This document shows positions 1 through 55,621 of a DNA stretch of 64,000 bases, piece by piece. The stretch's first letter is position 1, and every line of letters begins with the position of its first letter. Under the pieces are notes generated by a model. The model saw nothing but the letters and a program-made list of their open reading frames with translations. It had not been told where the DNA came from and ran no database searches. The DNA comes from an uncultured delta proteobacterium (GTDB taxonomy: Bacteria > Myxococcota_A > Polyangia > Haliangiales > Haliangiaceae), in contig CAWKDB010000010.1 of the NCBI GenBank assembly GCA_963848295.1, positions 2,048,001-2,112,000 of the forward strand, given 5' to 3'. A program made the position numbers and the translations under genes.

Positions 1-1077
1 GCGAGCGCGTCCAACGGCATGCTCGGCGGCATGTTCGGCATCGGCGTCGCGTTCGTCGCGATTCCGATCGTGATGTACCTCGCGATGGCGCCCGACAACT
101 CGAAGTTCATCGGCACGTGCGACTCGCTGCCGAAACCCGACGACACCTACGGCATCATGGTTCAGCTCGCGAAGGGCGGCCCGAATGCCGCACCCGCGAT
201 CGAGATCTTCGACCCGCTGTGCCCGTCGTGCAAAGCGTTCGAGACCCGGCTCGAGGCGTCGGGGATGGCCGACAAGCTCGACCGAAAAGCGGTCCTGTTT
301 CCGCTCGACAGCACGTGCAACTGGATGGTCCCCGAGGTCACGCATCCCGGTGCCTGCACGATCAGCGAAGCGGTGCTGTGCGCCGGCGATCGCGCGCCCG
401 ACGTGATCGCGTGGGCGTTCGAGGTCCAGGATCAGGTGCGCGAACAGACCAAGGCCGATCCGACCGCGGCGGCTCGCATGGTCAAGCAGCGGTTCCCGGA
501 GCTCGCGGCGTGCGTCGGCTCGCCCGAGGCCAAGGCGAAGATCAACAAGTCGCTGCGCTGGGCCGTCGCGAACAACATCCACGTGCTGACCCCGCAGCTG
601 TTCATCGATAACACGAAGCTGTGCGACGAAGATGTCGACCTCGGGCTCGAGTACGCACTCACGATCATGCTCGATCGCCACGCGAAGGGAACGCTCGCGC
701 CGATCCCAGCGGCCGGCACGCCGATGCCCGCGGCTGTGCCCGCCGACACCAAGCCAACGCCGCCGAGCGACACCAAGGCCGTGCCCGCCGACACCAAGCC
801 AACGCCACCGAGCGACACCAAGCCCGCGCCGCCGCCCGAGACCAAGCCCGCGCCGCCGCCCGAGACCAAGCCCGCGCCGCCGCCCGAGACCAAGCCGGAG
901 CCGCCGCCCGAGACCAAACCGACGCCGCCGCCGGAGCAGACCAAGCCGACGCCGGACAAGTCGGGCGAACGCCCGACGCGTAGCGCCGCCGATGGCGGCG
1001 CGGAGGTGAAAGACAAGCCTGTGACGTCGCCATCCGAGACGGCGCCTACCGGCTCGGCCGCAGGGAGCGCACCATGA
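1..1077 (+). CDS. Membrane-anchored DsbA/thioredoxin-fold protein with Pro-rich C-terminal tail (5'-partial)
   Basis: Frame is open from base 1; TM segment, then FDPLCPSC (CxxC) and cis-Pro-like TPQLFID; repetitive P/T/K tail. Confidence 0.75.
   Translation, partial: ASASNGMLGGMFGIGVAFVAIPIVMYLAMAPDNSKFIGTCDSLPKPDDTYGIMVQLAKGGPNAAPAIEIFDPLCPSCKAFETRLEASGMADKLDRKAVLFPLDSTCNWMVPEVTHPGACTISEAVLCAGDRAPDVIAWAFEVQDQVREQTKADPTAAARMVKQRFPELAACVGSPEAKAKINKSLRWAVANNIHVLTPQLFIDNTKLCDEDVDLGLEYALTIMLDRHAKGTLAPIPAAGTPMPAAVPADTKPTPPSDTKAVPADTKPTPPSDTKPAPPPETKPAPPPETKPAPPPETKPEPPPETKPTPPPEQTKPTPDKSGERPTRSAADGGAEVKDKPVTSPSETAPTGSAAGSAP
733..959 (+). repeat. Coding tandem repeats (2x AVPADTKPTPPSDTK; several 24-bp [E/D]TKP[A/E/T]PPP units)
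   Basis: Repeated gagaccaagcccgcgccgccgccc units are directly visible. Confidence 0.9.
960..1004 (-). repeat. Double-hairpin intragenic palindromic element, antisense copy
   Basis: Minus strand reads tccgcgccgcc-atc-ggcggcgc-tacgc-gtcgggcg-tt-cgcccgac (two perfect 8-bp stems); host peptide ADGGA is shared with the antisense copy at 54906. Confidence 0.6.
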
Positions 1078-1757
1078 TCGGGTTGCGCATCGCGATCGTC
1101 GCCGTGTTGCTCGCGATCCCCGCGACCGTGACCGGCATGTGGATCCACTCGGCCGAGACTCGGCTCGCCGAGCTGTCGGCGAGCGCGACCGACTCCGCGC
1201 CCGTCGCCGCCGCGTCCGACGTCGGTTACTGCAGCCCCGGTCTCAAGCGAATCCTGCGCCGCGTGCTGATGAGCTGCGGCCTCGTCGGCAACGGCGTCAC
1301 GCGCGGCTGCCAGCCGGTGCAGGCGAAGAACGTCGCGACGATGAGCGGCACGGACTTCAACGCGCTGTTCAAGCCGATGAAGGATCGCGGCGGCATCGTC
1401 CAGTTCGATCTCGACAAGTCGGATCTCGATCCGGGTGCGCTCGCGCTGATCGATCAGACGTTCGCCGATCAACGCGGTGCGAGCTGGTTCTTCGTCGTCG
1501 CGCGGTCGTCGCCCGAAGGCTCGATCGAGCACAACCGCGAGCTGTCGAAGGCGCGCGCCGAAGCCGTGATGACCCACCTGCGCGAGAAGTTCAAGGATCC
1601 CGATCTCGACAAGGAGGTCGGCATGCTGTGGCTCGGCAAGGAGTACGCTCAGCTCGAGGCCGAGTTCTGCCAGTGGAAGCGCAGCTCCGGCGAAAAATGC
1701 GGACCCGAAGAGATCAACCGGAGCGCGTTCATCGCATGGATCGACTGCCAGCTCTGA
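1074..1757 (+). CDS. OmpA-like (peptidoglycan-binding) domain protein, Cys-rich, N-terminal TM/signal
   Basis: VQFDLDKSDL...EGSIEHNRELSKARAEAV motif; ATGA overlap with the upstream gene. Confidence 0.7.
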   Translation: MIGLRIAIVAVLLAIPATVTGMWIHSAETRLAELSASATDSAPVAAASDVGYCSPGLKRILRRVLMSCGLVGNGVTRGCQPVQAKNVATMSGTDFNALFKPMKDRGGIVQFDLDKSDLDPGALALIDQTFADQRGASWFFVVARSSPEGSIEHNRELSKARAEAVMTHLREKFKDPDLDKEVGMLWLGKEYAQLEAEFCQWKRSSGEKCGPEEINRSAFIAWIDCQL

Positions 1758-2323
1758 TCATCGCGGTCGTCGTCACCGCCGGGTGCGACTCCAACAAGGC
1801 CGAGCCGACCCCGTCGCGAACCGAGGTCGTCAAGACCGCCGCGCACGCCAAGACGACAGATGTCGAAGCGTTCTGCGACGTGTATGCCGCCGACGACAAA
1901 GGCCCCGAGCTCACGTTCCCGGAGCTCATCGGTACGGTGCCACCGCAACCCGCGGGCACGTGGCGCTGGCTCAACGTATGGGCGACGTGGTGCGAGCCGT
2001 GCGTCGCCGAGCTGCCGCGCATTCAGCGGATGAAGACCAAGCTCACGGCCGCCGGCCGCAAGGTCGAGCTCGCGTTCGTTTCGATCGACGAAAAGGAAGA
2101 TGACATCACCGCGTTTCGCAAGGCGCACCCGGATACGCCGGAGACCGCACGCCTCGCGAAGCTCGACAACCAGGCCGCGTGGTTCTCGGCGCTCGGCGTC
2201 CAGCCGGCGACGCCGATCCCGCTACACGTGTTCGTCAGCCCTGCGGGCCACATTCGCTGTGCACGCGCGGGCGGGGTGCGCGACACCGACTACGACAAGA
2301 TCGACAAGCTGCTGTCGCAGTGA
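1736..2323 (+). CDS. TlpA/ResA-family thiol-disulfide oxidoreductase lipoprotein
   Basis: LNVWATWCEPCVAELP motif; lipobox-like VTAGC; ATG at 1736 overlaps the upstream gene. Confidence 0.85.
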   Translation: MDRLPALIIAVVVTAGCDSNKAEPTPSRTEVVKTAAHAKTTDVEAFCDVYAADDKGPELTFPELIGTVPPQPAGTWRWLNVWATWCEPCVAELPRIQRMKTKLTAAGRKVELAFVSIDEKEDDITAFRKAHPDTPETARLAKLDNQAAWFSALGVQPATPIPLHVFVSPAGHIRCARAGGVRDTDYDKIDKLLSQ

Positions 2324-2360
2324 ACCGCGCGACTCGCGATCTACGGCCTCGCACGGTGGG

Positions 2361-5300
2361 TCAATCGGTCGTCGCGCGATCGTGGTCGTCGATGCGCGCG
2401 GTCGTCGCGGTCTCGAGCCGGCGCGCCAGCTCGGCGGCGGTCGGCGGCTCGAGCGACGGCACCTTCCAGATCCGCAACGTGCCATCGCGCGAGCCAGAGA
2501 CGAGCTCGTCGGGCTTCGGCCACGCGACGCGATCGACCGCACCGTCGTGACCTCGCAACACGCGATGACGGCCGGTGTCGAGCTGCCAGACGCGGATCGT
2601 CTTGTCGTAGCTCGCGGTCGCGATCTCGCGACTGTCCGGAGAGAACGCGAGGTCCATGACGAGATCGCCGTGGCCCTTGAGCACGGTGACCAGCGCGCCG
2701 CTCGCGCTCCACACGCGGACGGTGCGATCGCCGAGCGCGCCAGCGATCAACTTGCCGTCCGGCGACGTCACGATGCGCTGGAGCTGACGGCCTTCGCTCG
2801 GAAGCTCGATCGTGTGTCCGCCATCGATCACGGCGATCGAATTATCGCAACGCGCGACGACGAGGTGATCGTCGACCGGATCGAACCGGATGAAGTTCGT
2901 GCACGACGGCGCGCCATCGCCGATCAGGGTGCGAGTGCCGTCGCGTTCGATCATCACGAGCTGGTCGCCGATCTCGGCGGCGACCCGGCCATCGCGCGCG
3001 ACCGTCATCTTGCGGATCGGCTCGCCGCCGTCGACGATCAGCTTGCTCGCGCCAGTCGTGACGTCCCACGCGCGCAGCGTGCCGTCGAACGAAGCGGAGT
3101 ACAGCGTCTTGCTGTCGTGCGAGAATTCTTCGCGCGACAATCGGCCGGTATGCCCGCGCAGCTCGAGCGGCGCGCCGACGCGACGCCGCAGCTCCATCGC
3201 ACCGAGCGGATCCGACTCGGGCACGACGAGTAGCTCGCCATCAGGCGATGGCACTCCAATCCCGAGGCTGTGCGCGTCGGCCCACGAGAACAACGGCTCG
3301 CGCGTGCCGTTCGCGAGATCCCAGCGCGCGAGGCTCGTCGGGGTCGCGACCAAGGCGTGATCGCCCGCGACCTCGAGCATCGCGATCTCCGCGCCTTCGG
3401 TCAGCACTCGCGCGTCGCTGTGAGCCACCGGCCAGACGCGCAAGCTGCCATCGACGCTCGCCGTGACGACGAGCTTCTCGTCGGGCGAGAACCGCGCGCG
3501 ATAGACATCGTCGTCGTGACCGGCGAGCTCGAGCGACGTGCCGGATGCGACATTCCACAACCGTGCGGTGCCGTCATCGCCGGCGGTGACGATCGTCTTG
3601 CCGTCGGCGGTGAATTGGATCGAGTAGATCGCATCGCTGTGGCCGCGGAGCGTGCGGGTCTGGCCACCCGCGATGTCGACGAGCAAGAGCTCGGGCCGCG
3701 TGCCGGCGAGCGCGAGCGTGCGCATATCCGGAGACCATTCGACCGCGTCGATCATGCCGTCGTAGTCGGCGAGCTTGTGCAGCGGGCCACCAGTGAACGG
3801 CACGCCCCAGACGGTGAGGCCGTCGTGCACGATCGCGAGATCGCCTCTGGGCGAGACGCCGACGTACTTCACCGCGCGCTCGGTATGAGCGATCACGCGC
3901 GGCGGCCCGGTCTGCGCGGTGTCGATCGCGACGACCTCGTTCGGCCCGACGACACCGACCCCGTGCGTCCAGTTGTTGCTCGCGACGGCGACGAGCATCG
4001 CGGCGTCCGGGCCGACCTGCTGATGCGTCCCGTCCAGGCCGACGAGGTTGACCGGCCCCGCCTCGTACTCGATCGCGACGCGCGTCCCCGCGGGGTCGAA
4101 GCGGATGTGTACGGGCGCACGACCGCGGTCGAGCAACGTGCGCGACGAGCCACCGGCGAGTGACCACGCGACGACATCGCCGAGCGACCCCGCGGTCACC
4201 GCGGTCTTGCCGTCGGGAGACAACGCGAGCACCACCGGTTCGGAGGCGGTGCGCCCGAGCACGCGGCTCGCTCCGGTCGCGACGTCATAGATCCGGACTG
4301 TCCCGTCGCGCACGCTCGCGACGATCGAGCGCCCATCCGGGGTGAACCGCGCGTCGTAGACCCAATCGCCCGGGCGCAACACGTGACGCGCGACCCCGAG
4401 CGAGACCGCCTCGTCGACGACGTCGACGACCTCGGAGCGATCGCGATCCGCGAGCGGATACAGCTTCAGCCACGCGACCGCTGCGGTGGGATCCTTGCGC
4501 AGCGACGTCTCGGCTTGGACGAGCACGAGCGCGTGCTTGCGATCTTCGGCCGACGAGCGCGCATCCTCGGCGCGCGCCCGTTCGGTCTCGGCGATATCGC
4601 GTTCGTCGACGACGCGGCGGAACGACATCACCCCGACCGCGGCCAACGCTAGCGCGCTGACCAGCGCCATCAGCGCGACGCCGCGATGTTGCGCCAGCTT
4701 GCGGCGAATGCGATGCCAGGTGGTGTACGCGTGCGCGCTGACCAACTTGCCGGTCTGGTAGCGGCGGAGATCCTCGGCGAGCTCGCTCGCATCGGCGTAG
4801 CGTTTCGCCGGATCTCGCGCCATCGCCTTGCCGACGAGATCGACGAGCTCGGTCGGGGCATCGACGAGCGCCTTCGGTGCGCCCGCGAGGACGTGGCTGA
4901 TCACCGCCTCCGGCGCATCGGGATGCTCGGTCGAGACATCGAAGTACGGAGGCTCGCCGGCGAGCAGCTCGTAGAGCACCGCGCCGATCGCATAGACGTC
5001 GACGCGTTCGTCGCACGCCTCGCCGCGCGCTTGCTCCGGCGCCATATAGGCCGGCGTGCCCGCGACGCGGCCCGAGATCGTCGATGCGCTCGATCCGGCT
5101 GCGACGTGCTCGCCCGGCGGCTCCGGCACCGCACCCTTGTTATCGCGCGCCAGTCCCCAATCGACGACGATCGTCTCGCCAAACGCTCCGACCACGACGT
5201 TCGACGGCTTCAGATCGCGGTGGATCACGCCTTCGCTGTGCGCGTAACCAACCGCGTCGGCGATCGCGATGACGTGCGGCAACAGACCGAGCCTCTCGCG

Positions 5301-5693: not shown

Positions 5694-5792
5694 GGAGCAC
5701 CGGCAACCTACCCGGCAGACCTCAGATTCCCATGACTTGCGGTCGGTGGACGCGGTGTTTCGAGATTCGCGTAACCCTGCGGAGACGCTGGG

Positions 5793-7738
<1,946 letters not shown>

Positions 7739-7748
<10 letters not shown>

Positions 7749-8164
7749 GTCGACCTCTGCGAGAACGCCTGGGAGAGACGCTCGGTGTCGGCGGGGTTGA
7801 GCAGATCCACCGACGTGATCAGATCGTGACACGAGGCCTCGCTGCTGAGGCAAACCGCTGCGATGTCTCTCAGCAGAGAGTGCGTCCCCATCCACTGCCA
7901 TTTCGCTTCCTCGTTCACCAGGGGTTGGCCAGCCAAAGCCCCGACATCCCGCACGTACCACCCTGCTTGGCGGCACAACTCGAGATACGAGCGACCCGCC
8001 TGGTGCGCCGCTTCGTCGAACGGCACCGGCGTAGGACGAGCCACGAGGATCGTTACGCCGCTCGCGATCGCTACCGCGCCGAGCGCCGTCCGCCAGCGCG
8101 TGCGTCGCACGAGCAGCGCAGCAAGGCCCGAAGCAATGACTCCAACGACGATGATCTCGATCAT
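7739..8164 (-). CDS. Small hypothetical membrane protein (2 TM plus Cys-containing domain)
   Basis: 141 aa ORF with two hydrophobic N-terminal helices; GGAGG RBS; tightly packed between neighbours. Confidence 0.65.
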
Positions 8165-8166
8165 GA

Positions 8167-9483: not shown

Positions 9484-9516
9484 ACATTCCTTTCGACGTA
9501 CGCTCGCGATCGGCTG

Positions 9517-10353: not shown

Positions 10354-10398
10354 GGACGGCTGTATCGACCGCCGCTCGCCGCGGTTGCGGGCCGCGAA

Positions 10399-10770: not shown

Positions 10771-10893
10771 CACCGATCGACCCGTGCCCCGCGCACACCG
10801 ACGAGCATGATCGCGAGCATCGGAATCCGTTTCATGTCATCGCTCCCGCGCCGAGCCTATCGCACGCGAGAACCGGTGCGCTATGGTCCCCGC

Positions 10894-13242
<2,349 letters not shown>

Positions 13243-24809: not shown

Positions 24810-25574
24810 CTACTGGTGCTGCTCGAACCACGTGCACTGATTCTCGACGCAGCCGCAGAACGTGGGCTGCGACTTCATCTCGTAGTCCATCACCTCGCCG
24901 CCGCCGAGGAGGTACCACGCCTCGCACACCTGGTGACCGACGCAATCACCGTCGGCGTGGCAAGCGCCGGCGGCGCGGCCGACCGGCAGGCGCGGTTTGT
25001 TCGGATCGTAGACGTCGTGGCGCGAGTAGTGACCCGTCGGCCCGCACCCCGCGGGGTTCTTGCACGCCGGACCGCGTGTCTCTTCGAAATGAATGTCGAT
25101 GCTGACCGCAGTGTCGTCGTCGCCCGCGGCCGCCGCGATCGCCGCGAACGACTGCGCCACGTCCTCGAGCGAGCGCTGACACACCCACTGCGAGAGCTTG
25201 AAGCAACCGTTGCGGCCGACGCCCGCGCAGCGATACGTCGAATTCACGCCGGCATCGCCCGTCGATAGGCCGCCGGTCGAGAACATCTGGTGCTCGAGCT
25301 CGGTCCACAGCGTGCGCGCCGCGCCGGCCGACAAGCTGTGGCCGCCGCGATGCAAGTGCACGCCGTCCGCGGCGGGGGTCACGCGGAAGCCGGCGACGGT
25401 CGCCGGCAGGTCGCGCAGCAGCTCGCCCCTCGCGGCGCGATCGACGCAGGCCATGTCGACGGTGCGCGGCGACGCGACCGGCATCGGCGGGGGCGGCGTG
25501 TGTGCGCGCCGGGTCGAGGTACCGCAGCCGGCGAGGGCGGCGAGCAAGGCGATTCGTGCGAGATGCGCAGTCAT
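24810..25574 (-). CDS. Hypothetical Cys-rich lipoprotein
   Basis: LAALAGC lipobox; many Cys residues. Confidence 0.7.
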   Translation of the reverse strand: MTAHLARIALLAALAGCGTSTRRAHTPPPPMPVASPRTVDMACVDRAARGELLRDLPATVAGFRVTPAADGVHLHRGGHSLSAGAARTLWTELEHQMFSTGGLSTGDAGVNSTYRCAGVGRNGCFKLSQWVCQRSLEDVAQSFAAIAAAAGDDDTAVSIDIHFEETRGPACKNPAGCGPTGHYSRHDVYDPNKPRLPVGRAAGACHADGDCVGHQVCEAWYLLGGGEVMDYEMKSQPTFCGCVENQCTWFEQHQ

Positions 25575-26895: not shown

Positions 26896-27855
26896 GTGGC
26901 CACATGGACCGTCGATCAAACGGCGCCGCCATTCCGCGACGCTGACTCCGGTAGTCAGGCGCCCGGAGTCGACGGTCGTGGACTGACGGTCGCGGCGTTC
27001 GTCAAAGCGCGCGCCGAGGTCGCGTGGTCGGTCGCGAAGCGCCACGTCACGACCGGCAAGGTGTTCGTCAACGGCGCGCGCGTCGTCGAGGTCGACCACC
27101 GGCTCGCGGTCGGCGACGAAGTCGAGCTGCGGATGGCCGCCCCGCGCCCGCACGATCCCGAGCGCGAAGGCGTGTTGGTCTACGACGATCCGCACGTCGT
27201 CGTCATCGACAAGCCGGCCGGCGTGAACAGCGTGCCGTACGAAGAGCGCGAGGGCGGCACCGCGATGGACTTGATCCGCGGCGCGTGGCGGCGTCAGGGC
27301 AAGGCGGCGACGAACGTCGCCTTGCACGTCGTCCATCGCATCGATCGCGCGACCTCCGGCCTGTTGATGTTCGCGAAGTCCAAGCGCGCCGAGCTCGGCC
27401 TCGCGGCGCAGTTGCGCGCGCACGCGATGGAGCGGGTCTACGTTTGCGTCGCGCACGGCGTCGTAAGCGCGCAGACGATCGAGTCGCAGCTCGTCGCGGA
27501 CCGCGGCGACGGCCTGCGGGGCTCGACGACCCACAAGGATCAGGGCAAGCGCGCGGTCACTCACATCGCGATTCGCCAAGCGCTGCGCGGAGCGACCGAA
27601 TGCGAGGTCCGGCTCGAGACCGGCAAGACTCATCAGATCCGGATCCACTTCGCGGAGTCGGGCCATCCGCTCGTCGGCGAGCCGGTCTACATCCGCGACT
27701 ACACCGGCTCGGTGTTGACGTCGGGCCGGCTGATGCTGCACGCGGCGACGCTCGGCTTCGAACATCCGGTCACCGGCGATCGCATCGCGCTCGCCTCGCC
27801 GCTGCCTCCCGACTTTGTCGCGGTCGTCACCCGACTGCTACCATCGCCGCCATGA
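26896..27855 (+). CDS. RluA/RluD-family pseudouridine synthase with S4-like domain
   Basis: DKPAG, HRIDRATSG, TGKTHQIRIH, LHAATLGF. Confidence 0.92.
   Translation: MATWTVDQTAPPFRDADSGSQAPGVDGRGLTVAAFVKARAEVAWSVAKRHVTTGKVFVNGARVVEVDHRLAVGDEVELRMAAPRPHDPEREGVLVYDDPHVVVIDKPAGVNSVPYEEREGGTAMDLIRGAWRRQGKAATNVALHVVHRIDRATSGLLMFAKSKRAELGLAAQLRAHAMERVYVCVAHGVVSAQTIESQLVADRGDGLRGSTTHKDQGKRAVTHIAIRQALRGATECEVRLETGKTHQIRIHFAESGHPLVGEPVYIRDYTGSVLTSGRLMLHAATLGFEHPVTGDRIALASPLPPDFVAVVTRLLPSPP
26911..26973 (+). repeat. Double-hairpin intragenic palindromic element (in frame in the RluA-family gene)
   Basis: 41/63 ungapped identity to the kinase unit (hand count); gactccgg/ccggagtc stem; bounded by gtcga...gtcga. 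Confidence 0.75.
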
Positions 27856-28376
27856 TCGCCTCGATTCGACTCGCGCGCGCGACCGACGTGCCGACGATCC
27901 TGCGCTTCATCCGCGCGCTCGCCGAGTACGAGAAGCTGTCGCACGAGGTCGTCGCCGACGAACCGGCGCTGCACGCGACGTTGTTCGGCGCTCGCCCCGC
28001 GGCCGAAGTCTTGATCGCCGAGCTCGATCACACCGCGCCGCCCCTCGGCAGCGTCGCCGCCGGGGGCCACGTGCCGGTCGGCTTCGCGCTGTTCTTCACG
28101 AGCTACTCGACGTTTCTCGGCAAGCCCGGCCTGTATCTCGAGGATCTGTTCGTGCTGCCCGAGGCGCGGTCGCGCGGCGTCGGCGGTGCCCTGATGGCGG
28201 CGTGCGCGAAGCTCGCGATCGAGCGCGGCTACGGCCGCTTCGAATGGTCCGTGCTCGACTGGAACGAGCCTGCGTTGAAGTTCTATCGCGCGCTCGGCGC
28301 GACGCCGCTCGGCGAGTGGACCGTACAACGGCTCGTCGGCGAGCCGCTCGCCGCGCTGGCCGCGAAGGCGACGTGA
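27852..28376 (+). CDS. GNAT family N-acetyltransferase (spermidine acetyltransferase-like)
   Basis: IRALAEYEKL, STFLGKPGLYLEDLFV, WSVLDWNEPA. Confidence 0.92.
   Translation: MIASIRLARATDVPTILRFIRALAEYEKLSHEVVADEPALHATLFGARPAAEVLIAELDHTAPPLGSVAAGGHVPVGFALFFTSYSTFLGKPGLYLEDLFVLPEARSRGVGGALMAACAKLAIERGYGRFEWSVLDWNEPALKFYRALGATPLGEWTVQRLVGEPLAALAAKAT
28023..28076 (+). repeat. Double-hairpin intragenic palindromic element (in frame in the GNAT gene)
   Basis: 34/54 identity to the kinase unit (hand count); peptide LDHTAPPLGSVAAGGHVP sits in a normally short beta-turn. Confidence 0.65.
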
Positions 28377-32200: not shown

Positions 32201-32736
32201 AAGAATGCCGCGAACTCGCCTTGCGCGAGCAGCGCGCTGCGCCGGAACTGATCGAACGACAATCCCAGGCGCTCGTGGATCGCCTTGAGCGTCTCGGTCT
32301 TCGTGCCGCCGAGCCGCTCGCCGTCGGCGATCGCGGTGAGCGTGACCTGCTGGTCTTGCAGCGTGCCGTCGCTCGCGTTGCGCGCGCGCCGCACCGACCA
32401 CCGCGCGCGATAGCGACGCGCATCGCCGCTCTCGAAGTCGACCTCGGCCCAGCCGGAGGTCGCACCGCGCCGCAGGATCGTCCGCACGTCTTGGGCACCG
32501 AGCGCGCTCGGATCGTCCGGATCGCGGCCGACCACGACCGTGCTGCGATTCGTCAGCCGCGGCGTGCGATCGAACAGCGCGACGCACATCGCATCGAGCA
32601 GCGTGCTCTTGCCCGCGCCGGTCGGCCCGACGATCGCGAACACGCCCGCGCCGCCGAGCGCGCCGGTCGCGAGGTCGATCTCGAACTCGCCGGCGAGGCT
32701 CGCCAGGTTGCAGCCGCGGATCGCGAGGATCTTCAC
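29263..32736 (-). CDS. sbcC: SbcC exonuclease ATPase subunit
   Basis: GPTGAGKS, Zn hook CPLCG, LSGGE, LLIDEGFGTLD, ISH. Confidence 0.95.
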   Translation of the reverse strand: MKILAIRGCNLASLAGEFEIDLATGALGGAGVFAIVGPTGAGKSTLLDAMCVALFDRTPRLTNRSTVVVGRDPDDPSALGAQDVRTILRRGATSGWAEVDFESGDARRYRARWSVRRARNASDGTLQDQQVTLTAIADGERLGGTKTETLKAIHERLGLSFDQFRRSALLAQGEFAAFLRADGRDRSELLERMTGTEIYSRLSIAAHERATLAEQLVRDARATALAIAVLDDPSRAAMELALGGARAAKAAARGAHAAAEAAVRWLAEAGARSLQIERARAAVDAAQTAVAAAEGERRELAVRRRAEALRTSWDDVARADRQLGAARGELAAATEAATMAGARAREIASTRERLIALREPLTAARIAAGVAEGRARPLADGEARAARAAADADWLVARSALAAQVAGWRDSDAKVAAASALDSELATADRALAEVEAKRVALGDRRKERVVAQQAAMAGLETAKIEAARFADRRGLSFEAARRQEDEARARCVEVDKLLAIAAQAHDAAVARGELDRQLGELAAANAEDSAQRHIAESAKATAAAVRSERERIVAELRRVAGYEHARAELVEGDPCPLCGAVEHPWYGRGAFDELIADAEVQLAACGHTFDAAIGELAQLAARSGQRAAERARLDSCLATVAATATAATTAWRGQLGALGELLLVGEPAGIDARELAVERAAAAKATLDAARAARSHAEAAVKAAGEAVAHVQTCQADAELHATAVRDVDHEIAANAAAIERLRGERTGKLERRRELHAEVAAAFAEWAVAAAKDDRSALFRSAARALSTTSHDGLAVALDRARRAASELASEWAERVASIVELDAALAAGVADADRLAREGERTDAELAARRSEAERRAIELADQRAIATAALDEARAAAGFTSDELRDALAGSLSRVDELAERLAALDRVADHARAIVGERRAHAAAHEALRPPAIETAGQVAALADQLAKLEQQAAELAASLAADAGARERRAAALAAVEAAERAAEVDRSLGQVIGSHDGKLFRSFAQSLTLDGLLAVANAHLEELAPRFQLERVPRHDLELQIIDRDLGGEIRSVQSLSGGESFLVSLALALGLSSMSAQDVRVRTLLIDEGFGTLDPATLEAALSVLDALQATGRQVGVISHVPALLERVGAHVRVSPRGGGRSEVIVAES

Positions 32737-34007
32737 GACATCTCCGCGAGGTCGACGACATCGCCGCGGACGTAGCCGAGCAAGCGATCGAACGCGCCGA
32801 GCATGCTCGCGCTCGGTGGCTCGACGTGACTGCGCGTCCAGATCCGGGTGAATACTTCGCGCGGATCGAGCTCGGCGAGCTTCTGGACCGCGATCCGGTC
32901 AGCGAGCGCGGCGCCATCGCCGGTGACCTCGACGCCGAGCCTGACGAGGCGCGCGTGCTTGCGGTCGAGCGCCGCTTCGATCGCGGTACGCAGGCGCGGC
33001 TCCGGCCGATCGAGCGCGACCACGATCTCCAGGTACGGTCGCGGCCCCTCGCTCGCAGCCGGCAGCGCTGCGATCTCGGCGAGCACCTCGGCGAGCGGCG
33101 CGGCGCCGCGCTTCGGGATCCGCGCGATCCCGACCGTCTGCGGGACCGCGACCGAGCGCAGCTCCGCGACCTTGCCGTCGCCGTCGAAGTCGACCACGAC
33201 GACCTGATGTTTGTAGCTCGCCTCGTCGAGCGCGAGCGCGATCGGAGCCCCCGCGTAGCGCACGGTGTCGCGACCTACTCGCTGCGCGCGATGCATGTGG
33301 CCGAGCGCGACGTAGTCGATGTCCTTCGGGAACAACCGCACCGACGCGGCTTCGACCCCGCCGATCGACACCCGCCGTTCACTCGCCGAGATCTCCGCGC
33401 CCGCGACATAGAGATGGCCGAGCCCGATCACCGCCTGGCCCGGCCGGCGCCTCGCGCGTGCGGCCTCGAACACCTCGCCGTAGATCGCCGCGAGTGGATC
33501 GGGGCAATCCGCGGGCACATCGCTGGCCGGGGCCTGTGCCCGGCCAGCAGCACTGCCGAATGGCAGTGCGGGTAGATCGACGGGCCGTAAGAACGGCACC
33601 GCCGCGACCAAGCCGCGACCGGCCGCGACCGGCACGAGGATGCGGTCGAGATCGAGCGCGCCGCCCGCCCCGCGCGGCAGCCCGCCGATGACGTGAACGC
33701 CGAGCTCGCGCAGCACCGCCGAGGCCGCGCCGAGCCGCGCCGGCGAATCGTGATTGCCCGCGATCGCAACGATGTCGACCGCCGGCAACGTGCGGCGCGC
33801 CGACGCGAGAAAATCGAACCACATCCGCTCCGCACTCGCCGGCGGCGTGCCGCTATCGAACACGTCGCCGGTGATCACGACGACATCGGGCAGCTCGCGC
33901 GCGCAGGTCTCGAGCAACCACGCGAGAAACGCGGCGTGCTCGTGCTCGCGAGTGACGTCCTTGAGCGTGTGCCCGAGGTGCCAATCCGATGTGTGAAGGA
34001 GCCGCAT
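32733..34007 (-). CDS. sbcD: SbcD nuclease subunit
   Basis: HTSDWHLG, GDVFD, GNHDS, YVALGHMH. Confidence 0.95.
   Translation of the reverse strand: MRLLHTSDWHLGHTLKDVTREHEHAAFLAWLLETCARELPDVVVITGDVFDSGTPPASAERMWFDFLASARRTLPAVDIVAIAGNHDSPARLGAASAVLRELGVHVIGGLPRGAGGALDLDRILVPVAAGRGLVAAVPFLRPVDLPALPFGSAAGRAQAPASDVPADCPDPLAAIYGEVFEAARARRRPGQAVIGLGHLYVAGAEISASERRVSIGGVEAASVRLFPKDIDYVALGHMHRAQRVGRDTVRYAGAPIALALDEASYKHQVVVVDFDGDGKVAELRSVAVPQTVGIARIPKRGAAPLAEVLAEIAALPAASEGPRPYLEIVVALDRPEPRLRTAIEAALDRKHARLVRLGVEVTGDGAALADRIAVQKLAELDPREVFTRIWTRSHVEPPSASMLGAFDRLLGYVRGDVVDLAEMS
33519..33581 (-). repeat. Double-hairpin intragenic palindromic element (in frame in sbcD)
   Basis: 44/63 identity to the kinase unit (hand count); perfect stems gcactgcc/ggcagtgc and gctggccggg/cccggccagc with compensatory changes. 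Confidence 0.85.
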
Positions 34008-46068: not shown

Positions 46069-46070
46069 CG

Positions 46071-46979: not shown

Positions 46980-47050
46980 CGCTCCATTGTCGCATGGCGC
47001 CGCGGCCGCCGGCATTCGCGACGGGGCGTGTTGCCGGCTACACTTCGGCG

Positions 47051-47771: not shown

Positions 47772-47777
47772 TTCGCC

Positions 47778-48541
47778 TCAGTTGCCGAAGCCGCCGAGCT
47801 GCGCGCCCGCCGCCGCCCGCACCGCCGATTGCGAGAACACCGCGAACGCGCGGCGGATCTCGGTCGCGCTGTTACCGGGCGTCAGGATCCAGCGATCCGG
47901 AATACCCATCTCGGTGAACACCGCGCGGAAGTCGGTGCGCCCATCGCTGATGCCCATCGCCGCCACGACGTGATGCTCCTGCGCGAGCATGTCATCGACG
48001 ATCGCCTTGACGTCGGCGGGGCGGCAACGATGCGATCCGTAGTCGCCACCATCGGTGATGATCAGCGTGACCGTTCGAACCGCGATGCCCGCGCGCGAGA
48101 GCTCCTGCGCTTTCGCGATCACCGTACCGAGCATCACGACGGTCTGATCGTAGAGCGGCGTGCCGAGCAGCGGGTGGTAGTTCGCGCCGGTCAGCTCGAC
48201 CGCATGATCGAGCGTCGTATACGCGCACAACACCTCGCCGTTGAGCAGCCGGGTATGCGCGAGCACCTCACCGGCTTGCTTCGACGCGCGCAACGCGGCG
48301 AGCACGAGGTTGTGGCCATCGCGCACGGCATCGACGTTGCCCGCCGCCGTGATCGACTGCGAGTCGTCGGGCATGACCGAGACCAGCACGACCTCGCTCG
48401 CGGCGATGTCATCGATCGTCACGCCGAGTCCGGCTTGGATCTGCGCGCCGACGTCGACGACATCGAGCGTCGCGAGGGCGCGCGCCGATAGGGCGCCTGC
48501 TCCGTGGGCATCCTCGAGGAGCTGTTTAGCTTTGCGATCAC

Positions 48542-48545
<4 letters not shown>
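47778..48545 (-). CDS. vWA-domain protein (TerY/YegL-like)
   Basis: MIDAS DDSQS, GTPLYD, IITDG; ATGA overlap with the upstream gene. Confidence 0.82.
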
Positions 48546-49603
<1,058 letters not shown>

Positions 49604-49617
49604 GAGATCTCCTTGGG

Positions 49618-51439
49618 TTAGTTGAGAGACAGGTGAAGGGCGTCGTGCTCGCGAATCACGTCGAGGCCGCCCGGCGCGAGCACGAGCCGATCGGCGGCGG
49701 ACACGAGCTGCGGCGGTCTCGGTGAACACGCGCGTGCAGGCGATCGCGCCGGCGACGAGCTCGATGCGAACGATGCCCGCGTCGGTCGGTACGAACAATT
49801 GGCTGCCACTCGCGCACGCGCCGGCGATGCCGGCGAGCCACGGCGTATCGGTCAGCAGCTCGGTCGCGAGCACGCGCGCGTCGCTGCCGATCACGACCGC
49901 GATCGTCGCGAGCTGGCCGTTGACCACGCGAGTCAACCACAGCCATGCGCGATCGCCGGCGATGGTCGCGTGCGCGGCGACGAGCTCGCCGTGAATCGCC
50001 GGCAGCGCGACGCGATCGTCGAGCCCGCCTCGCTCGGGGCGGAACACGAAGCCGACCGCGTAGCCCCCGGCGCGATAGAACCCGACGCCGAGCGCGGCGC
50101 CGACCCAGATCCGCGTTTGACCGGCGAGCACCGACCCGATCCGCTCTTCGCCGAGCCGCGTCTTGCGGAGCAACGCACCGCCGGACAACCGGATGCGCGA
50201 GTCCGCGGCCGGCGACGTCGTCGGGATGACGTGCCAGCGCAAGCCACCCGAGACCGAGACCGGTGGCGCCGGCGCGCGATGGCGGCAGGTCGGACACGTC
50301 TCGCGAGCGTGCTCGTCGCCGCACTCGCTGCATCGACGCATGCGTAGGCTCGCGAGCAATGCGCGCGGGAATTCTCCGCGGACGTCGCGCTCGAAGACGT
50401 CGCGGAACACGGCGAGGAGCGCATCGGGCAGGATCGCGAGCGGACGCGCGGCGCGCGGGTACACGACCTCGGCGTGCAACACGCTGATCCGTCGCAGGGC
50501 TCGCGCGGTCGCCGCGCAGCGCGGGTAGACACCGCCCCACGGACCGAGCCAGAGCAACGTGCGAAATGCCATCGCGGCGAACGCGAACCAGTCACTGTCG
50601 CGATCGTGCGGGCGCGATGGCACGAGCTGGCCGTCGCACAATCGCGGGTCGAGCAGGCGCTCGCTGAACATCGAGCACGGAAAGCCGGCGAGCTGATAGC
50701 TGTCGACGTCGATCAGGTGAACGCGTCGGGCGGCGAGGTTCGGGGCTCGCCCTCGAACGGCAGCGTCGCCGGATGGCGATGCGGTTAGATCGACGTTCGG
50801 GGCTCGCCCCCGAACGGCAGCGTCGCCGGATGGCGATGCGGTTAGATCGACCTTCGGGGCTCGCCCCCGAACGGCAGCGTCGCCGGATGGCGATGCGGTT
50901 AGATCGACCTTCGGGGCTCGCCCCCGAACGGCAGCGTCGCCGGATGGCGATGCGGTTAGATCGACGAGCACGTTGAGGTCGTTGCAATCGCCGATCACGA
51001 CGTCGGCGCGATGCAGGGCGGCGATCGCATCGTGGAGCGCGAGCAACGCCGCGATCAGCTCGCCGCCGTCGATCGGATGCTCGCGGCGCCAGCGCGGCTC
51101 GCCGTAGCTGAGCAGCGGAGTGCCGGTGACGCGCGGCATCGTGAAACCGACGACCTGGGTCGAGCGCTTGCCTGCGAGCGCGAGCCCATTGGGCGCGACG
51201 ATCGCGGGCGGCAGACCCGCCGGTAAGGCGCGCAGCTTGGCGGGGGCTTCGGCGAGCCGCCGCTCGGCCGCGGCTTGCGCCTCCGGTTGTCCGGCGAAGT
51301 CGGGGTGATCGGCGGGCTTCCACCACTTCACGACCCGGCCATCGCCGAGGTCGTAGACCTCTGCTTCGCCGCCTTGCCCGATCAGGGTCGCCGGCGCGAG
51401 GTCGAATCGCTCGCCGTCGATCCACACGACGCGATTCAT
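49618..51439 (-). CDS. YegI/TerY-P-type Ser/Thr kinase with Zn ribbon and C-terminal beta-rich domain; apparent +1 frameshift near 49712
   Basis: GQGGEAEVY, VVK, IGDCNDLN, IDVDSY, CSECG..CPTC; natural-looking C-terminus LVSAADRLVLAPGGL...LSLN* lies in the adjacent frame. Confidence 0.85.
50739..50965 (-). repeat. 4 x 57-bp tandem of the double-hairpin element inside the kinase gene
   Basis: Units start at 50739, 50796, 50853 and 50910 and are near-identical; they encode VDLTASPSGDAAVRGRAP[K/N]. Confidence 0.97.
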
Positions 51440-52257
51440 CGCGCGCTCCAGCGCAGGGCTGCGACCGCACAGTCGTCCTGCAACACCGCCGGCGTACGCA
51501 CGATCCGGCGATCGTCCCAGCGGATCCGCTCGTCGCCGCGCGCGAGCAGCACGAGCCTGCGGCGTAGCGCGTCGGGATGGGTGAACGCCGGCTCGGCGAC
51601 GAGGTCGTCGAGCGTCGAGTCGTGCGCGCCATCGGTCGCGACGATCGCGCGGCCAGCCTCGGCGCTGTGCGTCGCGAAGTGCGGTTCGACGCGCGTGCCG
51701 AGCAGCTCGTAGCCGACGTACGGCGGCTCGTTGTCGGCGAATGGCCCGAGCGCGCGCTGGCCCTGAGCTCGGTCGATCGATCGCCCGCCCGGCGAAGCAA
51801 GAATGGCCGACTCCGTGGAGCGAAGGGCCCCCGGAACGGGGCCCCCAAGCGCGTACACCCCGTCGCCGATCGCCCACACGCCTGCGCGACCGTCGTGCAC
51901 CGCGGCGGCGACCACCGTGAACAGCAGGAAGTCGGCGACGACACGCTCGCGCTCGCCGCCGAGCGCATCGGCGAGAGCGCCGAGCGCCGCCACCGCCGTC
52001 GCGCGGACCGCGGTCCACATCGCCAGATCGCTCGGATCGCCACCCGCCGCGAGCGCCCGGCCGAGCTCGCCGATCCACAGCTTCGCGCCGAGCCGCGCGC
52101 CGACCTCGGAGCTCGGGCTCGAGCCACAACCATCGCACACGACGATCGCCGCGGTGCTGCAGTCGCCGGTCCAGCTCGCGGCGGCGTCCTGACCGTTCCG
52201 CGCGTTGCGCAGATGGCGCGCCCCGATGACGGCCGCGCAGATTGCCTTCGTGTCCAT
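51436..52257 (-). CDS. PP2C-family protein phosphatase (YegK/PphC-like)
   Basis: GARH..NGQDA, VVCDGCGS, IGDG, VATDG, LQDD. Confidence 0.88.
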   Translation of the reverse strand: MDTKAICAAVIGARHLRNARNGQDAAASWTGDCSTAAIVVCDGCGSSPSSEVGARLGAKLWIGELGRALAAGGDPSDLAMWTAVRATAVAALGALADALGGERERVVADFLLFTVVAAAVHDGRAGVWAIGDGVYALGGPVPGALRSTESAILASPGGRSIDRAQGQRALGPFADNEPPYVGYELLGTRVEPHFATHSAEAGRAIVATDGAHDSTLDDLVAEPAFTHPDALRRRLVLLARGDERIRWDDRRIVRTPAVLQDDCAVAALRWSAR

Positions 52258-52265
52258 GCAACACC

Positions 52266-52294
52266 ATTATGGTGTCTGACATACACTATGTCAA
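52266..52294 (-). promoter_or_regulatory. sigma70 promoter TTGACA-N17-CATAAT with an overlapping NrtR-like palindromic operator (52269-52289)
   Basis: Minus strand ttgaca tagtgtatgtcagacac cataat ggtgttgc ATG; operator ATAGTGTA-N5-GACACCAT. Confidence 0.8.
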
Positions 52295-52324
52295 GCCGCG
52301 TGCGGGAAGCCCAAGACGGCAGCA

Positions 52325-52414
52325 GGTTGACAAAGTGAACACCGTCCCCAGTGAAGTCTCTGAAACTATTGGGGGTGACACCGACCCGCGGTTGACAGAG
52401 TGAACACCGTCCCC
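52325..52414 (+). repeat. ~90-bp intergenic element, copy 1 (two 25-bp direct repeats, 40-bp spacer)
   Basis: GGTTGACA[A/G]AGTGAACACCGTCCCC at 52325 and 52390. Confidence 0.9.
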
Positions 52415-52417
52415 CGG

Positions 52418-53053
52418 TTACGGAGCCAGGCGATCGCGCAACCAGCTGCCGTCGATACGGCGATAGCGCACGCGATCGTGCAAGCGCGACGGCTGGCCCT
52501 GCCATAGCTCGATCATGTCCGGAACGACGAGATAGCCGCCCCAATGGGCGGGGCGAGCGAGCGCGCCTTCGTGAGCCGCGGCCGTCACGAACTGCTCGAG
52601 CACCGCGCGATTCGCGATCGGCTGAGACTGCGGCGATGCGATCGCGCCGAGCTGACTGCCGCGCGGGCGCGACGCGAAGTAGGCGTCGGAGTCGGCGGCC
52701 GACACGCGCTCGACCATGCCTTCGATCCGGATCTGGCGATGCATCGGCTCCCAGTAGAGGACGAGCGCCGCACTCGGATGTGCCGCGAGATCGCGTCCCT
52801 TGCGGCTGTCGTAGTTCGTGAAGAACGTCAGGCCGCGCTCGGAGATCTCTTTGACGAGCACGATCCGCGCAGCCGCTCGACCACGCGGATCGACCGTCGC
52901 GAGCGTGGCAGCGTTCGGCGAAGCCACGCCGCCGTCGATCGCGGCCTGCATCCACCGGCGAACCTCGACGATCGGATCGGCATCGCACGCCTCGGGATCG
53001 AGCGGCGCACCTTCGTACTGCTCGCCGAGTCGCCACAGCCGATCATTGACCAT
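52418..53053 (-). CDS. pdxH: Pyridoxamine 5'-phosphate oxidase
   Basis: RIVLVK, FFTNYDSRKG, YFASRPRGSQ, WQGQPSRLHDR, RLAP. Confidence 0.95.
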   Translation of the reverse strand: MVNDRLWRLGEQYEGAPLDPEACDADPIVEVRRWMQAAIDGGVASPNAATLATVDPRGRAAARIVLVKEISERGLTFFTNYDSRKGRDLAAHPSAALVLYWEPMHRQIRIEGMVERVSAADSDAYFASRPRGSQLGAIASPQSQPIANRAVLEQFVTAAAHEGALARPAHWGGYLVVPDMIELWQGQPSRLHDRVRYRRIDGSWLRDRLAP

Positions 53054-53058
53054 GCGCG

Positions 53059-53463
53059 CTACTTACCATGTCCCGCTTCCATCGCCGCGTGGAAGCTGTC
53101 GTGCACCCTCGCGAACGCCGCATCGAACGTCGCGAGATCGGTGCCGCCGCACGCGGTCGCGAGCCCTGCGACCGCATCGACGAGCGGCTGGTTCTTCGCC
53201 GCATCCGCTTTTGTCTTGAAGTCGCCGATCACGCCGCACGTGTCGGTCATCCGCTGCTGACCTTGCGCGGCATGCCAGTGCGGCGCGAGCACGTCGTGAA
53301 ACGACGACAGCTCCGGCGACAGCCCGGCCATCTCGCGCTCGTGCTTGTCGTGGTGCTCGCCATCCTTCATGTCCGCCGCGGGCGCGGGTGCAGGGGTGGC
53401 GTCCTGCTTCTTGCTGCAAGCCGTGGCGAGGACGCACGCGAACGCGAAGCCGAGGGTACGCAT
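53059..53463 (-). CDS. Hypothetical His-rich helical lipoprotein
   Basis: LATAC lipobox; FHDVLAPHWH and VHDSFH. Confidence 0.7.
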   Translation of the reverse strand: MRTLGFAFACVLATACSKKQDATPAPAPAADMKDGEHHDKHEREMAGLSPELSSFHDVLAPHWHAAQGQQRMTDTCGVIGDFKTKADAAKNQPLVDAVAGLATACGGTDLATFDAAFARVHDSFHAAMEAGHGK

Positions 53464-53522
53464 CGCCGCGCTTTCGCACGCGCGCGCGGACGTGTCAACC
53501 GCGGCTCCGGTACAGTCGACGA

Positions 53523-54002
53523 ATGGAGCTGTACGTCGTCCGCCACGCGATCGCCTTCGACGCCGCACCCGCCGGTGGCGATCCTCTCCGCGCGCTCACC
53601 CCGAAAGGCGCTCGCAAGTTCCGGCGCGGCGTCCGCGGCATGCGCACCGCCGGGCTGAGATTCGATCACGTCTTGACGAGCCCGTGGCTGCGAGCCGTGC
53701 AGACCGCCGAGCTGCTCGGTCCGATCGCCGAACGCGAACCGATCGCGACCGACTTGTTGTGCCAACGGCCGGGCTCCGAGCTGCTCGCGCGGATCACCGA
53801 GCTCGCTAGCCACACCGCGGTCGTCGGCCACGAGCCGTGGTTGAGCGAGCTCGTCGCCTGGCTCGCGTTTGGCGACTCGCGCCACGGCGAAGCGCTCGAC
53901 CTCAAGAAAGGCAGCGTGACCTGGCTCTCGGGTGGCGTCGTGCCCGGCGGAATGACGATCCGCGCGATCCTGCCGCCAAAGCTGCTGCGCTCGCTGCGTT
54001 AG
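53523..54002 (+). CDS. sixA: Phosphohistidine phosphatase SixA
   Basis: RHA, SPWLRAVQTA, VGHEP. Confidence 0.9.
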   Translation: MELYVVRHAIAFDAAPAGGDPLRALTPKGARKFRRGVRGMRTAGLRFDHVLTSPWLRAVQTAELLGPIAEREPIATDLLCQRPGSELLARITELASHTAVVGHEPWLSELVAWLAFGDSRHGEALDLKKGSVTWLSGGVVPGGMTIRAILPPKLLRSLR

Positions 54003-54003
54003 C

Positions 54004-54093
54004 GGGGACGGTGTTCACTCTGTCAACCGGCCTCACGGCGTAGCCACAACAGTTTCAATGCCTTAACTGGGGACGGTGTTCACTTTGTCAACC
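54004..54093 (-). repeat. ~90-bp intergenic element, copy 2 (inverted relative to copy 1)
   Basis: GGGGACGGTGTTCACT[C/T]TGTCAACC at 54004 and 54069; same 65-bp period and a homologous spacer. Confidence 0.9.
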
Positions 54094-54095
54094 GG

Positions 54096-54626
54096 CTAAC
54101 GGAGTGGGCGCATCGCGCGTGCCCGCCGCAGGTCGTTGACGACGCGCGCGATCGCATCATCGTGCAGCAGCAGCTTCGACATCGCGCCGGTCGTGATGCC
54201 GAGCCGGCGCGCGGTCGCGCCGATCTCGAGGTCGCCTGCGACGAGCAGATCGAGCAGCTCCGCGATCGCGAGCCAGTAGTCTGCGGTCAGCCGAGTCCGC
54301 GCGCCGAGCGGTGCGGTGCCGCCGGCGACGAGCGCGGCGAGCCGCGGCGATGCCACGTAGCCGTCGAGCTCACCCGCGATCGGCGCGCGCACCTCGAGCG
54401 CGATCGCGGCGCGCAGGCGGCGCACCGCGTAGATCTTGTTCTCGGCTTGCGACCGGCTGTCTTCGCCGATCGCCGATACGCCGGTCGGGAGATGACGCAG
54501 TCGTACCGCGCTCTCGGTCTTGTTTCGGTGCTGTCCGCCCGGCCCGGACGCGCGATAGCGATCGACCTCGCTCTGCGCGATCAATGCATCATCGGTCGCG
54601 ATCAGGGCTGCGTCGCGCGGGGTCAA
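54096..54626 (-). CDS. Peptide chain release factor-like (GGQ) protein with C-terminal HTH-like extension
   Basis: YRASGPGGQHRNKTESAVRLRHLPTG, SRSQAENK; TTGA-coupled start. Confidence 0.85.
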   Translation of the reverse strand: MTPRDAALIATDDALIAQSEVDRYRASGPGGQHRNKTESAVRLRHLPTGVSAIGEDSRSQAENKIYAVRRLRAAIALEVRAPIAGELDGYVASPRLAALVAGGTAPLGARTRLTADYWLAIAELLDLLVAGDLEIGATARRLGITTGAMSKLLLHDDAIARVVNDLRRARAMRPLR

Positions 54627-55621
54627 TTCGCGTCGCTCGGCGCGGTCGCGGGGGTCGTCGGCTGCGTCACCGGCGCGCTCGGATCGAGATAGACATCGAC
54701 GCCGGCGCGCTCTCCGGCTCGACCGTATTCGACGCTCGCGATCCCGCCGCCGAGCGCACCGACCAGCTTGTCGAGCTTCGGATCGACCCCGACCTTCACA
54801 TCGCCGCACAGCGTGCGCGTCGCCTCGAACGACAGCCCCGGGACCAGCGCGCCGACCCGCACGATCTTGCCGCCGCGGATCCGCAGCGATAAGCCGAGCG
54901 CCGGGGTCGAAGAAACCGCACCGCCATCCGCCGGTGCTCCCGGTCCCGGGCGAGCCGCGACCGGCGATGCGCCGAGCAGATGCGCGACGAGTGGAGCCTC
55001 TAGCGGTGCGCCGGTGAACGAGGCGAAAGCCGCCGACAGCGCGGTGACTTGGGCGTCGACGGTCGCACCCGGCATCGCGAGCTCGATCTCGGAGTATGGC
55101 GCGTCGCCGATCGATTGCGTGAACCGCTCGATCCGCGACACGCCGTGTTCCTCGACCCACTTCTTGATCTGGTACTTCGCCTCGTGCGTCCCGAACATCG
55201 CCTCGACCTTCGGCCACTCGTGCGGATCGAAGAAGTGCCAGCCGGTCGTGACCTTGCCGCCCCACACGCCGATCCACGAGCCGACGAGCTTCGGCTCGAG
55301 CTGCTCGCCGATCTGATCGAGCAGGTGCGCGTCGGTCTTCGCGATGTTGCACAGCTTGAAGTAGTCGGCCATCCGCGGCACGAAGCCGCGCGGATCGCCC
55401 CACGAGCCCCACCAGACGCGGCGCAGATCGCTGCCGAGCATGGCGAGAAAGTTCACGCCTTCGCCGTCCGGCATATCCGGCGGCGTCGGGTTGTGCTCGA
55501 GCCAGCGGTCGAGATGGATATCCATCCACTCCTCGATGATCGGCAGCTGCGACAGGCTGATCTGGAGGTTCAACCGGACCGATAGCGCGCGCTGCAGAGC
55601 AGTCTCGAGCGAGCTGGCCAT
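54623..55621 (-). CDS. Hypothetical protein
   Basis: 332 aa ORF with strong codon bias, Trp-rich; lies in an operon after moaB. Confidence 0.8.
   Translation of the reverse strand: MASSLETALQRALSVRLNLQISLSQLPIIEEWMDIHLDRWLEHNPTPPDMPDGEGVNFLAMLGSDLRRVWWGSWGDPRGFVPRMADYFKLCNIAKTDAHLLDQIGEQLEPKLVGSWIGVWGGKVTTGWHFFDPHEWPKVEAMFGTHEAKYQIKKWVEEHGVSRIERFTQSIGDAPYSEIELAMPGATVDAQVTALSAAFASFTGAPLEAPLVAHLLGASPVAARPGPGAPADGGAVSSTPALGLSLRIRGGKIVRVGALVPGLSFEATRTLCGDVKVGVDPKLDKLVGALGGGIASVEYGRAGERAGVDVYLDPSAPVTQPTTPATAPSDAN
54906..54968 (+). repeat. Double-hairpin intragenic palindromic element (antisense to its host gene)
   Basis: 48/63 identity to the kinase unit (hand count); stems gcaccg/cggtgc and ccggtc/gaccgg. 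Confidence 0.85.

Follow-up and report, generated by a model that had tools for sequence, protein, structure and literature searches.

A 64,000-nucleotide stretch of the genome of an uncultured delta proteobacterium, a soil myxobacterium (contig CAWKDB010000010.1, positions 2,048,001 to 2,112,000; the whole stretch is called the window below) carries copies of a mobile, structured DNA repeat that adds loops to proteins, analogous to the Rickettsia palindromic elements (RPEs). A reading of the window made from its letters alone (the sequence-only reading) had proposed this, and precise empty sites in relatives together with copies spread over the genome bear it out. The phenomenon itself is already known. 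The element family looks new, with a behaviour already known from Rickettsia and cyanobacteria.

We searched the source genome (G000; 7.78 Mb, 68% GC, 85% complete, 11 contigs) with a profile hidden Markov model (HMM) built from six window copies and iterated once. The profile gave 176 matches at E≤0.01, which we call family A, and the best match in the reversed genome had an E-value of 0.12, so that the genome-wide scan proposed as a check came out clearly above background. The 176 matches correspond to 152 loci, including 10 head-to-tail arrays. A sister family, family B, accounts for 36 copies at 20 loci, and the two together comprise 212 copies, 172 loci and 15 arrays, all of them head-to-tail. 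The loci are mildly clustered (12 pairs closer than 1.5 kb versus 4.6 expected). Eight family A matches lie in the window, four in a kinase-like gene and one each in an RluA-family gene, a GNAT gene, sbcD and a hypothetical gene. The unit is 57 bp (19 codons) long, as given both by the array period and by the gaps in orthologues; an initial estimate of about 57-63 bp thus held at its lower end, the 63-bp reference copy having included 3 bp of flank on each side. Subfamilies hold the length of 57 nt through compensating indels in the head and the loops. No match to the element was found in Rfam, nor in NCBIfam when the host proteins were searched (E≤0.01).

Insertion was examined by comparison with relatives. 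An SbcD orthologue was present in 18 congeners, and all 17 that cover the site (one of them, G010, from an unpublished genome) lack the 19 residues, their empty junction being Val-Asp or a near variant of it. The sbcD copy is also absent from G031, a close relative with 80-92% identity over long alignments, where the gap is 57 nt. Gaps of 57 nt in G031 were likewise found for the copies in the RluA-family and hypothetical genes, and the kinase-like gene has one copy there versus four in the source genome. The gap is 39 nt for the GNAT copy, which had been placed at 28023-28076; the element is present, but as a 39-nt remnant, the last ~15 bases of that interval being host sequence also found in the relative. 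When 38 copies of G031 were compared with the source genome, 12 corresponded to zero-gap sites, 8 were shared, 11 gave other outcomes (some of them remnants) and 7 could not be mapped. Gains or losses have occurred at many sites since the two close species split.

In the outer flanks of 80 family A loci, position -1 is C in 78, -2 is T in 63, +1 is G in 79 and +2 is A in 52; position +3 of the 3' flank is T in only 24. Insertion is precise at a C|G junction (the bar marks the junction), mostly TC|GA, and adds exactly one unit, although the position of the cut is ambiguous between C|G and CG|. The TCGA/CGAT-like ends first noticed on several copies are not a duplicated target. The 3' end base of the element (in its 'TC') covaries with stem 2, independently of the flank, and for this reason we see no target duplication beyond at most CG. 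Matches between flank and end at -3, -6 and +6 (p 0.024-0.035) did not survive correction for 12 tests, and target duplication was rejected. In family B, counted over 18 loci with 2 of the 20 skipped as partial, the 5' flank is TTGTC in 8 loci versus 0.9% of TC sites genome-wide, and the element's own 3' end is TTGTC in 13, flank and end not always matching within a locus. The rule that the target resembles the element's own end fails in that orientation for the subfamilies of G016 and G009, and several congener subfamilies favour a GAT 3' flank. Separately, one gene (G000:C10:2876722-2878215) holds two elements in the source genome, with additional insertions in G018 (L100) and G006 (L103), which suggests a tolerant hotspot.

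On the strand used by the sequence-only reading, the element begins with a 9-nt unpaired head, whose first bases are GAT; a first stem of 8 bp then closes a 4-nt loop, and after a single unpaired T a second stem of 10-11 bp runs to the element's last base. The two hairpins are unlike each other. That both stems are kept by compensatory change, as had been read from the window copies, was confirmed with 44 copies: 86.1% of cells were paired, versus 30-62% in slid control structures, and cells changed on both sides numbered 87 against 31.8±5.0 in shuffles, counts that do not represent probabilities as the copies are related by descent. The top mutual-information pairs over 110 distinct copies were mostly stem pairs, and RNAalifold independently recovered 13 of the same pairs. 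The structure is based on this covariation because folding energies of single copies were often no better than those of dinucleotide shuffles (z below -4 in two of six). The invariant bases in stems and loops, and the compensatory changes seen between dispersed copies, argue for a protein that recognises the structure. On the reverse strand, the loop of hairpin 1 fits cGNABg in 91 of 97 copies and that of hairpin 2 fits CNNG in 95 of 97, both motifs being among the four stable DNA tetraloops that the title of Nakano 2002 names (cited in PMC10085684). This strand folds ~2.3 kcal/mol better than the other, as DNA and as RNA alike (95 copies). Folding of the element as single-stranded DNA is suggested, not proven, by these features.

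The relation of the element to genes was then considered genome-wide. Our own gene calling gave 6,815 genes (86.6% coding). The 152 family A loci divide into 107 inside called genes, 33 intergenic and 12 partial, intergenic sites being enriched over the 10% expected from the supply of TCGA; of the 52 copies that are intergenic or partial, 26 could belong to N-termini that were not called. Among congener copies, 81 of 143 were inside called genes. It had been proposed that copies keep a single frame per strand, a shared peptide motif in sense and ADGGA in antisense, but four reading frames are used genome-wide. The 107 loci use the frames 85/20/2 and TCGA itself falls in them at 79.8/17.9/2.3%; we therefore rejected selection on the peptide as the cause of the frame bias and regard the shared peptide as a by-product of where TCGA falls in codons. 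Family A copies in genes are more often sense (68 loci) than antisense (39; p=0.0065), and family B is mostly antisense (11 vs 1), which fits target counts of 7,175 versus 2,109. Matches in ten congeners numbered 367; among the 150 whose lengths were listed, 57 nt (74 copies) and 60 nt (42) predominate, and with 3 of 54 nt they make 119 multiples of three. At 82 loci of congeners, coding copies were more frequent among those of codon-multiple length (35 of 64) than among the others (2 of 18; p=0.001). Six host genes compared with G031 had dN/dS values of 0.06-0.35, and that of the element-free control sbcC was 0.16. In SbcD the insertion follows a strand, in a loop where the Escherichia coli protein also has extra residues. 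The AlphaFold model of SbcD has pLDDT <50 at residues 149-165, weak evidence given that seven other segments are equally low (14-row alignment).

A broad covariance model (CM) matched 45 of 71 congeners in the family Kofleriaceae, and it found no match in 41 genomes of other genera of the family, 8 genomes of other families or 139 further genomes of the phylum; as the model was trained on this genus and strictly filtered, relatives at a greater distance may have escaped it. A scan of GTDB genomes with an exact pattern gave at least 80 loci, from 17 assemblies whose titles read Kofleriaceae or Deltaproteobacteria bacterium and from one titled Acidobacteriota. The latter assembly carries family A elements (L141, L172), and a flank of L172 is 73% identical in DNA to G000; judging from this sequence, the title may not reflect the lineage of the assembly. 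The family A pattern had no match in viral contigs. A narrower pattern matched twice in metagenome contigs, both times an ordinary full element, and contigs from four low-share soil and root sequencing runs gave nothing on excision or expression.

We compared the element with repeat systems already described. RPEs are palindromic repeats of ~150 bp, in frame in many unrelated genes, whose mobiliser is not established (Ogata 2000, 2002, summarised in PMC10969869). The present element resembles them in being in frame in unrelated protein genes, absent from orthologues and moved by a mobiliser that is not established. It differs in its size (57-60 bp), in the use of four frames where RPEs encode a conserved peptide, and in its free-living high-GC host, its 212 copies and its defined TC|GA target. 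No RPE model was among the NCBIfam matches of six host proteins (E≤0.01), and the element is, judging by its size and this lack of a model match, not a member of the RPE family. Repetitive extragenic palindromic (REP) sequences, REPINs and BIMEs with their REP-associated tyrosine transposases (RAYTs) are short GC-rich hairpins in hundreds of copies, and intragenic REPs have already been described (PMC3116915, PMC8266576, PMC3733652). Shared with these are species-specific subfamilies, tandem arrays, a consensus core of hairpin 2 nearly equal to the palindromic core of the SBW25 GI REP (PMC3116915), and a GTAG at the base of hairpin 1, seen in 14 of 18 family B loci. Unlike REPs, which are mainly extragenic, the element is mostly intragenic; it has two unlike hairpins and not an inverted doublet, a C|G and not a CT/CA junction, no GTAG in family A and no RAYT gene that it flanks.

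Derivatives of the insertion sequences (IS) IS200/IS605, whose target resembles the element's own end (PMC6006769), share with the element the lack of target duplication, a hairpin near each end and a target like its own end, most clearly in family B. They differ in that we found no parent IS with the element's ends and no lagging-strand bias, that one junction of the element lies at the very foot of a stem, and that family A shows a preference on both sides. Non-autonomous derivatives of this kind are named PATEs. SDR5 of cyanobacteria is very small and inserts precisely in an over-represented CGATC-type word (PMC4390886, PMC13756078), and so does the present element, again with no established mobiliser. 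Compared by description, SDR5 is a 21-nt unit in GCGATCGC, in another phylum, and the element is 57-60 nt at TC|GA or TTGTC|. The element is distinguished from miniature inverted-repeat transposable elements with terminal inverted repeats by ends that do not pair in the consensus structure and by the absence of target duplication. An integron attC site, which has complementary core motifs at both ends, was rejected, as only one end of the element has an attC-like motif, in a subset of copies, and so was an origin from a tRNA T-arm or attC, as the key position varies and Rfam gave no match. We found no description of the element family in the accessible parts of the literature, papers on Kofleriaceae included; the supplements of PMC3733652 and PMC6006769, on REPs and Y1-associated hairpins, could bear on its novelty.

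Our leading explanation, which we hold with slightly less than even confidence, is that the element is selfish and non-autonomous, 57 nt long (60 nt in some relatives), and moved as single-stranded DNA by an HUH/Y1 transposase acting in trans. We rank it first because, of the known chemistries, this one best accounts together for insertion without duplication, recognition of hairpins and a target that looks like the end of the element (PMC6006769, PMC8266576), and also because of the GTAG at the foot of hairpin 1 in family B and the nearness of hairpin 2 to the Pseudomonas REP core (PMC3116915). The element would fold when single-stranded, and its hairpins would be recognised by a TnpA-REP- or IS200-like enzyme encoded elsewhere, which would excise it as a single-stranded circle and join the circle into a target resembling its own end. 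Arrays could arise by insertion into the element's own head-to-tail junction or by unequal recombination. Most insertions would keep the frame and be tolerated as Pro/Gly/Ala-rich loops, because the element's length is divisible by three and TCGA in most cases spans the boundary between two codons. The peptide would then be a passenger, and selection would maintain the frame-keeping length.

Candidate enzymes of this class exist in the source genome. There are nine Y1_Tnp (PF01797) matches, for which the closest NCBIfam model, REP_Tyr_transpos, scored below its cut-off, and a second HUH/Y1-like family of five copies (e.g. G000:C2:1134455-1135282) is not among the PF01797 matches. The latter is flanked by a short repeated motif of its own in irregular arrays. 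A linked RAYT- or IS200-type transposase, which the sequence-only reading had suggested looking for, was not found adjoining the element. None of the source-genome Y1 genes is flanked by a copy, the nearest being 2.0 kb away, and half-element searches gave no ends bracketing an open reading frame (ORF), so no autonomous parent with the same ends. Genes between close element pairs gave no link to a mobiliser.

A series of results weighs against movement by an HUH/Y1 enzyme. The element flanks none of 41 Y1 loci by CM and none of 59 by HMM, the congener loci being a sample and the source genome 85% complete. No copy flanks the second HUH-like family (five copies; nearest 8 kb). Y1 genes occur in all 18 of 18 congeners and family A in nine of those, and the carrier G034 (98% complete, at least 38 copies) has no PF01797 match. 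Orientation relative to GC skew is 76 versus 76 loci, showing no replication-strand bias, with the skew weak and the genome in 11 contigs. The junction, inferred from flanks, is C|G versus the CT/CA cut by the studied TnpA-REP (PMC8266576), and neither circles nor excision were seen. Family A has GCAG or TCAG, and not GTAG, at the base of its first hairpin (column counts). The reading as single-stranded DNA stays suggestive because G.T mismatches (70) are about as common as A.C mismatches (76) and pick no strand, and because copies of G034 mostly have 5-nt loops, outside the tetraloop motif (10 viewed). The forward-strand loop can also be read as an RNA loop of the UNCG type.

The lack of a linked transposase, the absence of a Y1 match in G034 and the mild clustering of loci would also be accounted for if no dedicated transposase were involved, and host nicking, repair or short-homology recombination at CGATCG, GATC or TCGA-type sites copied the folded unit into new sites, in the manner suggested for SDR5 at HIP1. 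We regard this as doubtful but rank it second. CGATCG is the fourth commonest hexamer in the source genome (27,354 occurrences), several congener subfamilies have the GAT 3' flank, and SDR5 enters between nucleotides 3 and 4 of HIP1 (PMC4390886), one base from or equal to the CG-ambiguous junction of the element. Against it, family B uses TTGTC, which is not CGATCG-like, T at +3 is infrequent in family A, the invariant and compensated hairpins point to a protein recognising structure, and 26 of 71 congeners have no match. As a separate observation, the CGATCG excess is HIP1-like and lies outside cyanobacteria.

The near-invariance of C and G at both junctions, and a family A target resembling the head-to-tail junction on both sides, would suit a minicircle moved by a site-specific recombinase (IS110-type, tyrosine or serine) that acts on a 2-bp core of CG. 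We consider this quite unlikely. There was no IS110 match in the source genome, at its 85% completeness, no recurring recombinase was seen among 905 neighbouring ORFs (top 25 clusters viewed), and an attC-like motif is present at one end only. Other candidate partners were also set aside. Neither GIY-YIG (two matches in the source genome, nearest copy 2.5 kb) nor the four-helix-bundle IVP family (31 matches; among the 29 measured, the closest lay 0.9 kb from a copy) showed a link, and DUF559 had no match in the genome. Many of the IVP matches occur as divergent pairs ~1.1 kb apart.

Movement through RNA, in which transcribed copies would fold and a host reverse transcriptase would reverse-transcribe them or reverse-splice them into DNA, we judge quite unlikely as well. 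Precise insertion without duplication and the sense bias of family A are in keeping with it, and the source genome has four reverse-transcriptase matches. Both loops can also be read as stable RNA tetraloops, though on opposite strands. Reverse transcriptases are, however, equally frequent in carriers and non-carriers (13 of 15 each, the non-carrier set including the unpublished genome G080), Rfam gave no match, family B is mostly antisense as its targets predict, and there is no G.U strand bias. Retention of copies for a host function, as peptide linker, mRNA structure or protein-binding site, is highly improbable: purifying selection on the host genes, 8 of 38 sites in common with G031 and the bias in sense and frame agree with it, but the use of four frames, in proteins unrelated to each other, follows the supply of targets, and the copies are patchy between close relatives and leave partial remnants at orthologous sites.

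The copies in the window are collected below. All places named in the sequence-only reading hold a related element, as judged by HMM, CM and alignments.

Table. Copies of the repeat in the window, with position, strand and gene context.
Feature	Position	Strand	Context and scores
Family B element, 57 bp	955..1011	-	Antisense, Pro-rich C-terminal tail of DsbA-like ORF ending at 1077; broad CM 63.7 bits
Possible decayed family A copy, uncertain	24948..25005	-	Gene at 24810-25484; CM 24.3 bits, E=0.00076
Family A element	26914..26970	+	Sense, in frame, N-terminus of RluA-family gene (26896-27855); HMM 33.4 bits, CM 59.1 bits
Family A remnant, first 39 nt (13 codons)	28026..28064	+	Sense, in frame, GNAT gene (27852-28376); HMM 25.5 bits, CM 37.6 bits
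Family A element	33522..33578	-	Sense, in frame, sbcD (32733-34007); 19-residue insertion at ~residues 144-162
Head-to-tail array of four family A elements, period 57	50735..50962	-	In frame, kinase-like gene (48542-51439)
Family A element	54909..54965	+	Antisense, frame preserved, hypothetical gene (54623-55621, - strand); HMM 37.9 bits, CM 63.4 bits

The copy in the DsbA-like gene had been counted with the others. It is a related element, but a member of family B; the family A HMM did not detect it at E≤10 and the family A CM gave a weak 19.6 bits. In G031 it corresponds to a 54-nt gap within low-complexity sequence, and a Pro-rich 24-bp tandem repeat lies just upstream in the same gene, at 738-950. 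The array in the kinase-like gene sits between catalytic-loop-like and DFG-like motifs, the label being based on motifs read by eye, as no library named the protein. This gene is one of three adjacent genes on the - strand (47778-52257; vWA-like by eye, kinase-like, and PP2C by Pfam), for which PADLOC gave no match. The trio resembles a TerY-phosphorylation triad. Two of the three genes carry in-frame repeat insertions, the other being a 78-nt (26-codon) repeat of a further family, C, at 51762-51839 in the PP2C-like gene, absent from G031. Family C has an array period of ~80 bp and ~30 blastn matches, mostly intergenic, and by eye has a short motif in common with a conserved stretch of ~250 bp that lies upstream of several RAYT-like genes. 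A family D, at 52322-52414 and 54003-54096, consists of a ~25-bp motif in direct repeat, its two copies separated by a variable spacer of ~40 nt that is richer in AT; the family is intergenic, occurs at ~44 places in the genome and does not adjoin Y1 genes.

A more far-reaching claim, which we think unlikely, is that this minimal, scarless element of 57-60 nt takes its target from its own terminal bases, giving TC|GA in family A and TTGTC| in family B; that the enzyme which moves it is none of the known partners (Y1/RAYT, IS110 or reverse transcriptase); and that life inside proteins has held its length at whole codons throughout the genus. If true, it would be a natural, retargetable system for loop insertion, and could point to the missing mobiliser of RPE- and SDR-type repeats. 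For the question of how RPEs, SDRs and intragenic REPs move, this family is an unusually good test set, with more than 200 copies, base-exact empty sites in a relative, 45 carriers and 26 non-carriers, and subfamilies that differ in target and length. For annotation pipelines, the insertions will mean misplaced start codons and a shared 19-residue loop that is possibly read as a domain. For the organism, the element is selfish DNA in which compensating indels preserve a length divisible by three and, touching ~100 genes, a steady source of new protein loops.

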